The translations under genes were made by a program, and so were the position numbers. A DNA stretch of 64,000 nucleotides from Eledone cirrhosa. Lineage: Eukaryota. The stretch spans positions 199,454,001 through 199,518,000 of the forward strand of contig OZ024743.1 in the NCBI GenBank assembly GCA_964016885.1. Direction: 5' to 3'. A model generated the notes under the pieces. It worked only from the letters and a program-made list of their open reading frames with translations. It ran no database searches and had not been told where the DNA came from. Shown in pieces: positions 18,925 through 21,669 of this stretch (within the stretch, counting starts at the first letter, position 1; each line of letters opens with the position of its first letter).

Positions 18925-20539
18925 TATACACTAAGGTTTTGATTGTTTATGTCTGTCCTATAATGATAAATATATTGAAAATATAATTTTGAATTAATCT
19001 ATAGGGAAAACGGGCAAATAAATGGATACTAAAACAGTGTAGGCTTTAATTATAAAAAGAAATACATTTTTTTAATTTAACAACAGCAAATGGATGATAT
19101 AAATAAACTATTAAATAGCATATTCATGGCTATATTGCTAATGGTAACATTTTTTTAATATCTAGTTTACCAAACTATACAGAATATTTGCAAAGCAATA
19201 TGATTTTATGACAACATCATCATCATCATTTTTGTATTTGCTTTCCATGCTGGTATAGGCTACACTGGTTGTCACATTTTGAAGCTGGACAAGTTAGATG
19301 ACCACATCATGTTCATATGTTCCATATTTGGGAAGGTTTCTATAGCTGGATGTTCTTACTAATGCCATCCACCTTACAGTATATACTTGGTGTGTTTTAT
19401 CATGGCACCAGCTCTACCACTTTACAGAGTGAACTGGGGGCCTTTCTATCATGGCAACAGCACTATCAATTTACAAGATGAACTGGGTGCATTTCATTAT
19501 AACACCAGCTTATTGTCATTTTGTCACCCTCTCTTCCCACACACACACACATAACAGCTGCATAAGACCATTCATACACATGAGCATGGTGAGTGATGTG
19601 AACATATTTGATAATGTGGTCCCCAGTTGACTGCATAGAGGAAAAGAATGGGATGGTCACAGATGGAATTAAATTTCATCATACATCTTCTCAATCAGAG
19701 TTGACTTGGGAGTGTATAACAATAACAACAACTATAAAACCAATCACACCATACACACACACACTTCACATTAAAAATACAAAGTTCACACAGTATACGC
19801 ACGTACATCATGTTATAACATACAATATTCATACAAAAGTTAGTTACAGTAAATATTATCTTGATTGTGTCTTTCACTCCCTCCTCCTCTTTCTCTCCCT
19901 ATCTATCTAATTATCCCCCCCCCCTTATCCTAAACTATATCTCTCTCTCTTTCTCTCTGCTTCTCTCTACTTCTCTCTCACACTATCATGCTCATTTTCT
20001 CTACCAAATTCATTTTATTTCTATATAATAAAAATGCATGCATAGATTAATCATCGTATATAAAATCGAATGTTAGTAATAGATTCATTATGTTTATGCA
20101 TCTATTTATGTATGTATTTATTATAACTAACTGACTTCCTATTATCACTCTCTCTGGCAACATTTCTCTGGTCGCAATTTTCACTGTGTCACACCCTTAA
20201 AATATTTGTATTACTCTGAGCTATAATTTATTGATTTATAGATATCACCTCATTGAGTGCTTTGTGCCAGCCCTAGAAGATTGATTTCGAAAAATCCTAA
20301 TTGCAGCTGTAACTTCTATTTTACTCACTATTATTATTATATAAATATATATAAACGGAAAAAATGAAACGAAATTTCATTTCTCACGCTTAATGAAATT
20401 TTGTTTCATTTTTTCCGTTTATCGTTTTCGGTACCCCGGCCGATTAATTCACTCAATATGCAAATTAGGCTGCTCAGCCGTTAATATGCATAAGGAAAGT
20501 ATATACTTTCAGACGTTCAACCATCTGGCAGGAAGGTAT

Positions 20540-20582
20540 ACGTTGCTGACGATAGCTAATAAACTTGAAACTAGTACAGCGT
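20540..20582 (+). ncRNA. Minimal type-I hammerhead ribozyme, copy 1
   Basis: acgttg CTGACGA tagctaataaactt GAAA cta GTA cagcgt: stem I acgttg/cagcgt, palindromic stem III actagt, GUA site; stem II weak. Confidence 0.7.
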
Positions 20583-20731
20583 TCCTTTGTCAGTGTTGAA
20601 CAAACGAGCAATGATGGTTGCTAGACACTGTACGGCTTAATTCGGGATGTTTGTTTACAAACACACCGAGCATTATAATAAATGTTCGGTGAATGCATAC
20701 GTACATATATATATATGTGTGCATGTATGTA

Positions 20732-20762
<31 letters not shown>

Positions 20763-20993
20763 GCATACTACTGTACATCTGTATACATATATGTATGTAC
20801 GTATACATACTTATATTTAAGTAACAGCCATACTAAGAGTGAGAAATGAAATTTCGTTTCATTTTTTCCGTTTATTGTTTTTCAGTACCCCGGCCGATTA
20901 ACTCACTCAATATGCAAATTAGGCTGCTCAGCCGTTAATATGCATAAGGAAAGTATATACTTTCAGACGTTCAACCATCTGGCAGGAAGGTAT

Positions 20994-21036
20994 ACGTTGC
21001 TGACGATAGCTAATAAACTTGAAACTAGTACAGCGT
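20994..21036 (+). ncRNA. Minimal type-I hammerhead ribozyme, copy 2
   Basis: Identical to 20540-20582, 454 bp downstream. Confidence 0.7.
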
Positions 21037-21183
21037 TCCTTTGTCAGTGTTGAACAAATGAGCAATGATGGTTGCTAGACACTGTACGGCTTAATTCGGG
21101 ATGTTTGTTTACAAACACACCGAGCATTATAATAAATGTTTGGTGAATCCATACACACATATATATATGTGTGCATGTATGTA

Positions 21184-21214
<31 letters not shown>

Positions 21215-21669
21215 GCATACTACTGTACGTCTGTATACATATATGTATGTACGTATACATACTTATATTTAAATATATATATATATACATACACACATAC
21301 ATATATATATCATCATCATCATCACCACTTAATGCCCATTCTTCAATGCTATCATGGTTTAGTTGAGTTGTTCTCTTGTGAGATAGGCCAGGTCAGGTAT
21401 CCATGTCTTTCTCATACAGAACTGATTTTAGCTTGGTTCCGACAGCTGGATGACCTCCCTAATGCCTATATATATATAAGGATTTTGAATGTATGTTAGC
21501 TTCAAGTTCACTGCTATATTTCAAATTCAATGGTATATTTGAAGGTCTATACAACATGTTTAAATATAATAATCATACAATCTCTCTGAGATATGATCAT
21601 GTCACAGCTATCTCAGTAGCTGTTAAGAATATCAGACACGTCATGTGTTTCAGAATGTTTATCCCTCAT

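Follow-up and report, generated by a model that had tools for sequence, protein, structure and literature searches.

Retrozymes are a known class of element, and the derivation of animal retrozymes from Penelope-like elements (PLEs) has been argued before. That PLEs mobilise animal retrozymes, with a circle as the template, has so far been proposed from co-occurrence and from similarity to pseudo-LTRs (pLTRs) (PMC7229834; bioRxiv 10.64898/2026.07.22.740005), and rolling-circle copying was suggested as the mode (PMC7229834). PLE insertions themselves are described as partial tandems with inverted 5' copies, a tail that often stands at one end only and a bias towards (TA)n. The bias was linked to a CX2-5CxxC linker, and the way in which PLEs produce tandems, inversions and tails was left open there (PMC8557442). 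The minimal hammerheads (min-HHRs) of PLEs are without helix III or loop 3 and have a long helix II and a G10.1-C11.1 pair; low activity and a U3-A8 variant were reported for PLE ribozymes, and a short palindromic helix III implies dimeric activity (PMC4209133). In frogs, cleavage was seen in only one of nine dimers (bioRxiv 10.64898/2026.07.22.740005). What we add is the scale of one such family, the existence of octamer-bearing families and a quantified rule for the ends of inverted insertions in a non-coding element.

The DNA analysed here, called the window, is a stretch of 64,000 nucleotides from Eledone cirrhosa (contig OZ024743.1, positions 199,454,001 to 199,518,000, forward strand). 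The first-pass annotation had described two near-identical tandem units with an octamer and a hammerhead each, and both units were found, with a start-to-start spacing of 454. The octamer ATGCAAAT lies at 20458 and 20912 (spacing again 454), CTGACGA...GAAACTAGTA, which does not differ between the units, begins at 20546 and 21000, and GUA ends at 20576 and 21030. The 42-bp inverted stub was confirmed as well, 20351-20392 being the reverse complement of 20834-20875 with 41 of 42 positions matching. The insertion runs from this stub through a 5'-truncated unit, a full monomer and a partial unit to ~21272, then (TA)n; no target-site duplication was discernible at it. The features are as follows.

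20351..20392, minus strand: inverted, 5'-truncated arm; by the end-type rule, its outer end is 3' end B (the end of the 56-nt tail) and abuts AT-rich target
20392..20576, plus strand: first unit, 5'-truncated, with tail remnant, octamer, TATA-like palindrome and the 5' half of ribozyme 1
20458..20465, plus strand: octamer ATGCAAAT of the first unit, a likely promoter element, kept across subfamilies and families
20495..20510, plus strand: palindrome GAAAGTATATACTTTC with a putative TATA-like box, judged from its sequence and its family 2 counterpart
20515..20601, plus strand: hammerhead 1, of type I, its helix I extended and its core at 20546-20576; the cut is predicted after 20576, and A20563 breaks helix II (folding, covariation)
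20577..21030, plus strand: complete monomer of 454 nt between both predicted cut sites, the predicted circle (fold)
20697..20812, plus strand: hairpin rich in TA and TG, similar to a microsatellite but belonging to the unit; it runs to 3' end A (CATACTTAT)
20820..20875, plus strand: tail of 56 nt that separates 3' end A from 3' end B and contains the hairpin GAGAAATGAAA/TTTCATTTTTTC
20912..20919, plus strand: octamer of the second unit
20969..21055, plus strand: hammerhead 2, also of type I, with the cut predicted after 21030 and helix II disrupted by A21017
21031..21272, plus strand: terminal partial unit, which stops at 3' end A and is followed by (TA)n
39052..39310, plus strand: decayed copy of family 2, octamer at 39053, U3-A8 variant hammerhead with the core mutated in this copy

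The two window units are 97.0% identical over 433 aligned columns and are therefore not a collapsed duplicate. An assembly artefact or a unique local duplication with a chance hammerhead motif had been named as a possible explanation; the region is microsatellite-rich and no public contig spans the whole locus, as such a reading would have it. However, 3% of the aligned columns differ between the units, the genome contains upwards of 23,000 cores, and family sequence was found in 4 of 4 public runs examined, all as assembled contigs. At the family level this refutes the artefact, which we regard as almost inconceivable.

Our searches revealed that the window tandem is one insertion of a very abundant, dispersed non-coding repeat family. 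The genome (3.0 Gb, rich in AT microsatellites) contains 23,770 exact copies of the 33-nt ribozyme core against 0 for the reversed control, a density of about one intact core per ~125 kb. Post-cut 22-mers gave 29,345 exact genome matches (control 0) and octamer blocks gave 23,469 (control 17), while a DNA search with the unit returned 1,311 candidates, of which 40 were scored and showed 96-100% identity on many contigs. The 454-bp unit length given earlier holds at the window locus but not for the family, where it is locus-specific, the TA run being expanded in both window units; family units measure ~420-475 nt, or up to 553 with long TA runs, and have a GC content of 0.34-0.38. No frame of at least 100 aa lies inside the unit core, and the two frames that overlap the unit end are microsatellite translations. 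We did not accept the AATAAA at ~20677 as a poly(A) signal, since the corresponding sequence of subfamily 1b is AATAAG.

The element had also been called young. The family does have young subfamilies, for example 1b, which is 99% identical across 40 scored matches, but the window copy is older than the youngest of them. Both window units have A at 20563/21017, where 23 of 28 other best-hit loci have G, as does ~99.5% of depth in one public DNA run. In folding, this A removes a C-G pair of helix II and leaves the region unfolded (0.0 vs -2.5 kcal/mol), and the window copy is likely a weakened or dead daughter. Rare alleles are common to both of its units. The allele pair has one other exact 60-mer match in the genome, at the same place as locus L007, which differs from the window copy at subfamily-diagnostic sites; parallel change is the likely cause of the sharing.

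The diverged relative placed at 39030-39180 does bear the octamer, but it is a copy of a separate, older family that is homologous beyond the octamer. The 39 other scored best matches of this family 2 have 84-89% identity. A family 3 was also found, and families 1-3 share the octamer, the hammerhead and similar downstream hairpins; inverted fragments of family 3 occur in the window at 22257-22366. A related 310-nt hammerhead family is without the octamer. This family is very young at L159 and L162, with near-identical arrays and inverted arms. The helix I arm of this family, GATTACTTCCCTTG, is similar to the distal element upstream of the host's snRNA genes. At L133/L134 and L169, insertions were copied together with their flanks by segmental duplication. 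Two further tracts of the window, both on the minus strand, resemble such elements. The one at 54200-54800 is a partial tandem with a period of ~530 that has a hammerhead-like CTGATGA...GAAAC at 54521, ends in TATCGTGA(TA)n and looks like another PLE pLTR or retrozyme family. The other, at 53480-53800, carries a hammerhead-like CTGATGA...GGAAACCATGTT at 53615 before a (TA)n end and is possibly another pLTR. The window also has two similar open frames ~1,955 nt apart (43207-43578 and 45162-45599), which form a duplicated repeat, and a run of N at ~61080-61280. The family was not found in titles and abstracts of the literature on cephalopod retrozymes and octopus hammerheads, where supplements or repeat databases may name it otherwise, and a term search in the main text of an octopus repeat annotation gave no mention of ribozymes or retrozymes (PMC13282606).

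Every unit carries the core CUGANGA/GAAA/GUA with helices I, II and III of 6, 4 and 2 bp, as judged from motif, fold and covariation. The family 1 fold is of type I: a helix I of 6 bp with a long extension, CUGA(C/U)GA, a U.U base, helix II AGCU/AGCU, GAAA, the palindromic ACUAGU and a predicted cut after GUA. To call this ribozyme 'minimal' was inexact, as the helix lengths and the palindromic helix III fit the canonical metazoan type I (PMC4209133), and the 2-bp helix III with a UA loop, the 4-bp helix II and the U.U at 10.1/11.1 depart from the min-HHR. Rfam gave no hammerhead match among the best 150 of 357 rows for the window, nor on 20480-20690, and the matches listed were microsatellite-driven or weak miRNA/snoRNA only; the hammerhead was therefore called from its motif, its fold and its covariation. 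Of 5 pairs tested in 15 distinct sequences from three families, 3 vary on both sides, one example being the replacement of C3-G8 by U3-A8; these are counts of sequences rather than of independent events. In the same test, 90.7% of cells are paired vs 9-53% for slid controls. Pair 3 of helix I is U.G, G.U or A-U among subfamilies. Furthermore, circular folds of monomers have z scores of -8.0 to -11.2 vs 25 dinucleotide shuffles each, to which the TA-rich hairpin contributes part. The window monomer of 454 nt folds as a circle at -142.3 kcal/mol (z -8.0 vs 25 shuffles), and the monomer ends pair through helix I in the predicted circular fold. The family RNA is predicted to self-cleave into unit-length pieces; the U.U at the base of helix II, and the broken helix II of the window copy, speak against a strong ribozyme.

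Newt satellite 2 is reportedly a hammerhead tandem repeat with an octamer-containing promoter of the snRNA type, and a promoter of this kind had been suggested here. The conservation of the octamer was borne out: it is exact in 115 of 128 distinct contexts with a parsed octamer position, and it is kept in subfamilies 1a, 1b and 1c and in families 2 and 3 although its neighbours change. A TATA-like box stands ~35 nt downstream, in family 2 within a hairpin at the same place; the palindrome is shortened in subfamily 1c, and families 2 and 3 add CCAAT. Counted against the overall account are a 9-unit insertion that carries ATGCATAT and the 310-nt family without the octamer. However, the host's own genes do not support the snRNA type. 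The exact octamer was present in 1 of 15 distinct host U1/U2 upstream 400-mers, at -399, and the best 18-mer matches between the repeat and the U1/U2 proximal window reached 11-14 of 18, the same as shuffles (5 snRNA loci vs 4 families). Since the distal regions of host U1/U2 are without the octamer, the snRNA-promoter analogy fails. Upstream of the host U1/U2 genes (L234-L268) we observed TCAGT at ~-57 and a TTAYYTCCCTT-like (TTACCTCCCTT-like) element at ~-260, and no vertebrate-type octamer. By a slight preference, an ordinary Pol II promoter would be the better guess.

Analysis of the ends gave a clear integration footprint. At 30 best-hit loci (29 distinct), most 3' ends sit at one of two positions, A and B, which are separated by 56 nt and are each followed by (TA)n, while the 5' ends are scattered; an inverted arm was read by eye in at least 15 of the 29 distinct loci. 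In a set of 102 loci, 27 of 28 automatically paired inverted insertions combined one A with one B end, the other one being A+A and none B+B, and after one duplicated locus was merged the count was 26 of 27 (p ~2e-7). The end classifier missed some ends, including the window's own A end, so that its counts are lower bounds. The window insertion obeys the same rule, with the stub ending at B and the direct arm at A. TA tracts were present after 51 of the 53 A ends and after 65 of the 76 B calls, and 7 of the 11 B misses are internal units wrongly called ends. The 5' inversion had been attributed to insertion of the PLE type, and the family agrees with this throughout: its 5' truncations are scattered, its tandems partial, its inversions tail-out and its targets (TA)n. 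The 5' ends of 71 arms spread over the unit and do not pile up around the predicted start, where the interval 31-60 nt upstream of the cut holds 7 of them. An apparent cluster of 13 of the 71 arms at 164-183 nt upstream of the cut was not accepted as real: it falls within the T-rich tail, in which subfamilies diverge, and a break in the alignment may have produced it.

Copying by a PLE reverse transcriptase (RT) had been proposed. The footprint is that of PLE insertion, but the enzyme is only inferred, and no sampled autonomous element matches the unit. Long open PLE ORFs do exist in the genome: L076, L077 and L078 encode 1,096, 938 and 844 aa with RT-like and GIY-YIG matches, and the CX2-5CxxC linker pattern of the Neptune/Nematis type is present in 6 of 8 translated PLE ORFs. 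The pLTR of the L077 family carries its own U3-A8 hammerhead and a tail of ~63 nt, and the autonomous L081, an inverted copy of the same family with RT/GIY-YIG, has the same A+B layout as the non-coding family. One might then take the units for solo or truncated pseudo-LTRs of an autonomous PLE with an unsampled ORF, the more so as the GIY-YIG search (PF01541) scored 150 of 10,595 candidates. We consider this very improbable. The arrays join unit to unit without an ORF, whereas in L077 the tail runs straight into the ORF; the scattered 5' ends of the 71 arms share no coding flank except for a pair within locus L170; and in L086 and L087, where family copies adjoin ORFs, the copies had inserted independently into TA tracts and the ORFs were rejected as partners. 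At one intact core per ~125 kb, family copies adjoining ORFs are to be expected. A copy near an ORF in L070 was also rejected as a partner, by alignment only. No RT/GIY-YIG ORF was found in units or arrays, such ORFs lying elsewhere in the genome, and the unit showed no similarity clearly above shuffles to the 3' regions of 50 GIY-YIG loci, a sample of the 10,595 candidates, except where family copies were nested. At the 5' junction of L022, a family 1 copy is joined without a TA tract to the near-3' end of an autonomous L077-family pLTR; this junction may be due to chance, or else to a template switch that would hint at the partner RT.

As to the template, 97 of the first 100 post-cut matches on one contig read across the cut, 75 with the exact core directly upstream and 22 with a mutated or truncated core; the remaining three start at about +2, +5 and +7, and none at +1. 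The template was therefore a circle or an uncut multimer, and since insertions end at internal sites rather than at the cut, a cut linear monomer is not the usual template. Local duplication fails for the window dimer: its units have rare alleles in common, and the locus holds segment 20820-20833 a single time, so that none would be left if one period were taken away. The dimer therefore cannot have grown in place from a shorter insert. These facts, together with the expanded TA run, indicate that the dimer was written at insertion from identical repeats, for which later gene conversion is an alternative as regards the common alleles. At another locus the arms hold 10 and 5 cores, with 9 complete units free of substitutions outside the TA run. 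In the young loci L162, L163, L166 and L176 there are 0 differences between arms vs 1-4 to the nearest other locus, while in older loci an arm resembles its partner no more closely than it does other loci.

A satellite origin, in which monomers dispersed once and tandems then grew locally by unequal crossing-over, has been proposed for related arrays (bioRxiv 10.64898/2026.07.22.740005) and would account for the period-2 (ABAB) arrays in L132, L137, L162 and L168, for the hybrid first full units of L137 and L168 and for their locus-private alleles (2 matches). The L162 array has one substitution plus TA length. The hybrid first units and private alleles led us to drop dimer circles as the source of these arrays, which point to local duplication after insertion as an additional process. 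As a general account the satellite origin is improbable: it cannot make the window dimer, and it is contradicted by the multi-unit arms that share alleles on both sides of an inversion (L162, L163, L166, L176).

More serious is the proposal that the same PLE-dependent element is copied from uncut linear multimers with template jumps, the hammerhead cutting rarely and circles playing no part. Uncut multimers explain the read-through of the cut equally, the base of helix II is weak, such ribozymes had low activity in vitro (PMC4209133; bioRxiv 10.64898/2026.07.22.740005) and autonomous PLEs make partial tandems even without hammerheads (PMC8557442). This seems somewhat unlikely to us, given the compensatory changes in core and helices across families and the absence of a 5'-end pile-up near the predicted start; moreover, if linear RNAs were copied from an internal promoter, arrays could shrink but never grow, and near-identical arms of 10 units are nevertheless present. 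On balance we favour a circular template, which fits the arm and read-through data.

Taken together, this non-coding hammerhead family probably makes an RNA that is predicted to self-cleave and likely circularises. A Neptune-type PLE RT/GIY-YIG protein likely acts on it in trans and reverse-transcribes it into (TA)n tracts. An internal Pol II promoter, formed by the octamer and the TATA-like box, would drive read-through of tandem units. Two hammerheads are then predicted to pair via the palindromic ACUAGU and to cleave behind GUA, while the monomer ends would be held together for ligation by the long helix I. The endonuclease, presumed from the footprint, would nick (TA)n, and the target ends would prime at the fixed UA-rich site A or B, which bracket the 56-nt hairpin tail. 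Copying passes the cut site for one to about ten units and stops at scattered points, as the insertions show. Where both strands are primed, one arm ends at A and the other at B, hence the inverted stub. A bolder version, which strikes us as plausible without our leaning towards it, is that at least three octamer-bearing families parasitise Neptune-type PLEs via a ribozyme-made circle, that the RT rolls on it to write up to ~10 identical units per arm in one event, that the 56-nt tail alone sets A+B priming, and that a promoter for a POU factor lies inside the circle. If true, the ~430-nt RNA would be a minimal cis-complete substrate for the unsolved mechanism of PLE integration. With tens of thousands of footprints, a ~430-nt non-coding unit, a near-strict A+B rule, very young subfamilies and long open PLE ORFs, the questions of retrozyme mobilisation and of PLE tandems become testable with small constructs.

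The family shows every testable feature that defines non-LTR retrozymes, and it behaves as a non-autonomous passenger of PLEs. It is neither an autonomous PLE nor a min-HHR element nor a repeat with an snRNA promoter. With newt satellite 2 it shares the hammerhead tandem repeat, a probable internal promoter and the palindromic helix III, and it differs in that no host PSE match rises above shuffles and host U1/U2 lack the distal octamer. The short, low-GC tandem units without an ORF and with a type I hammerhead each are similar to those of metazoan non-LTR retrozymes such as axolotl HHR_Amex2, as are the highly self-paired predicted circle and the U.U at the base of helix II; PLEs were proposed as the mobiliser there (PMC7229834). 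However, the unit of 420-475 nt is at or above the reported 150-450 bp, and the conserved octamer, the two fixed 3' ends and the A/B inversion rule of our element set it apart from what the passages on those retrozymes describe (PMC7229834). Like Neptune- and Naiad-type PLE insertions, it shows 5' truncation, partial tandems, an inverted 5' copy, an often one-ended tail and the (TA)n bias; unlike these PLEs it has no RT/GIY-YIG ORF, its tail is 56 nt vs 30-40, and it has no sequence match to a sampled autonomous family (PMC8557442). Non-autonomous Chlamys elements such as MRC1 are likewise non-coding, multicopy head-to-tail insertions made by PLE machinery, but generally resemble their autonomous partner at the 3' end, a match not found here (PMC8557442). 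The pLTR-derived retrozymes of Xenopus are also non-autonomous PLE derivatives present as monomers, dimers and multimers; in that report the link to PLEs consists of co-occurrence and pLTR similarity and the arrays are ascribed to local amplification (bioRxiv 10.64898/2026.07.22.740005), whereas here insertion footprints tie the retrozyme to PLE enzymes unusually clearly.
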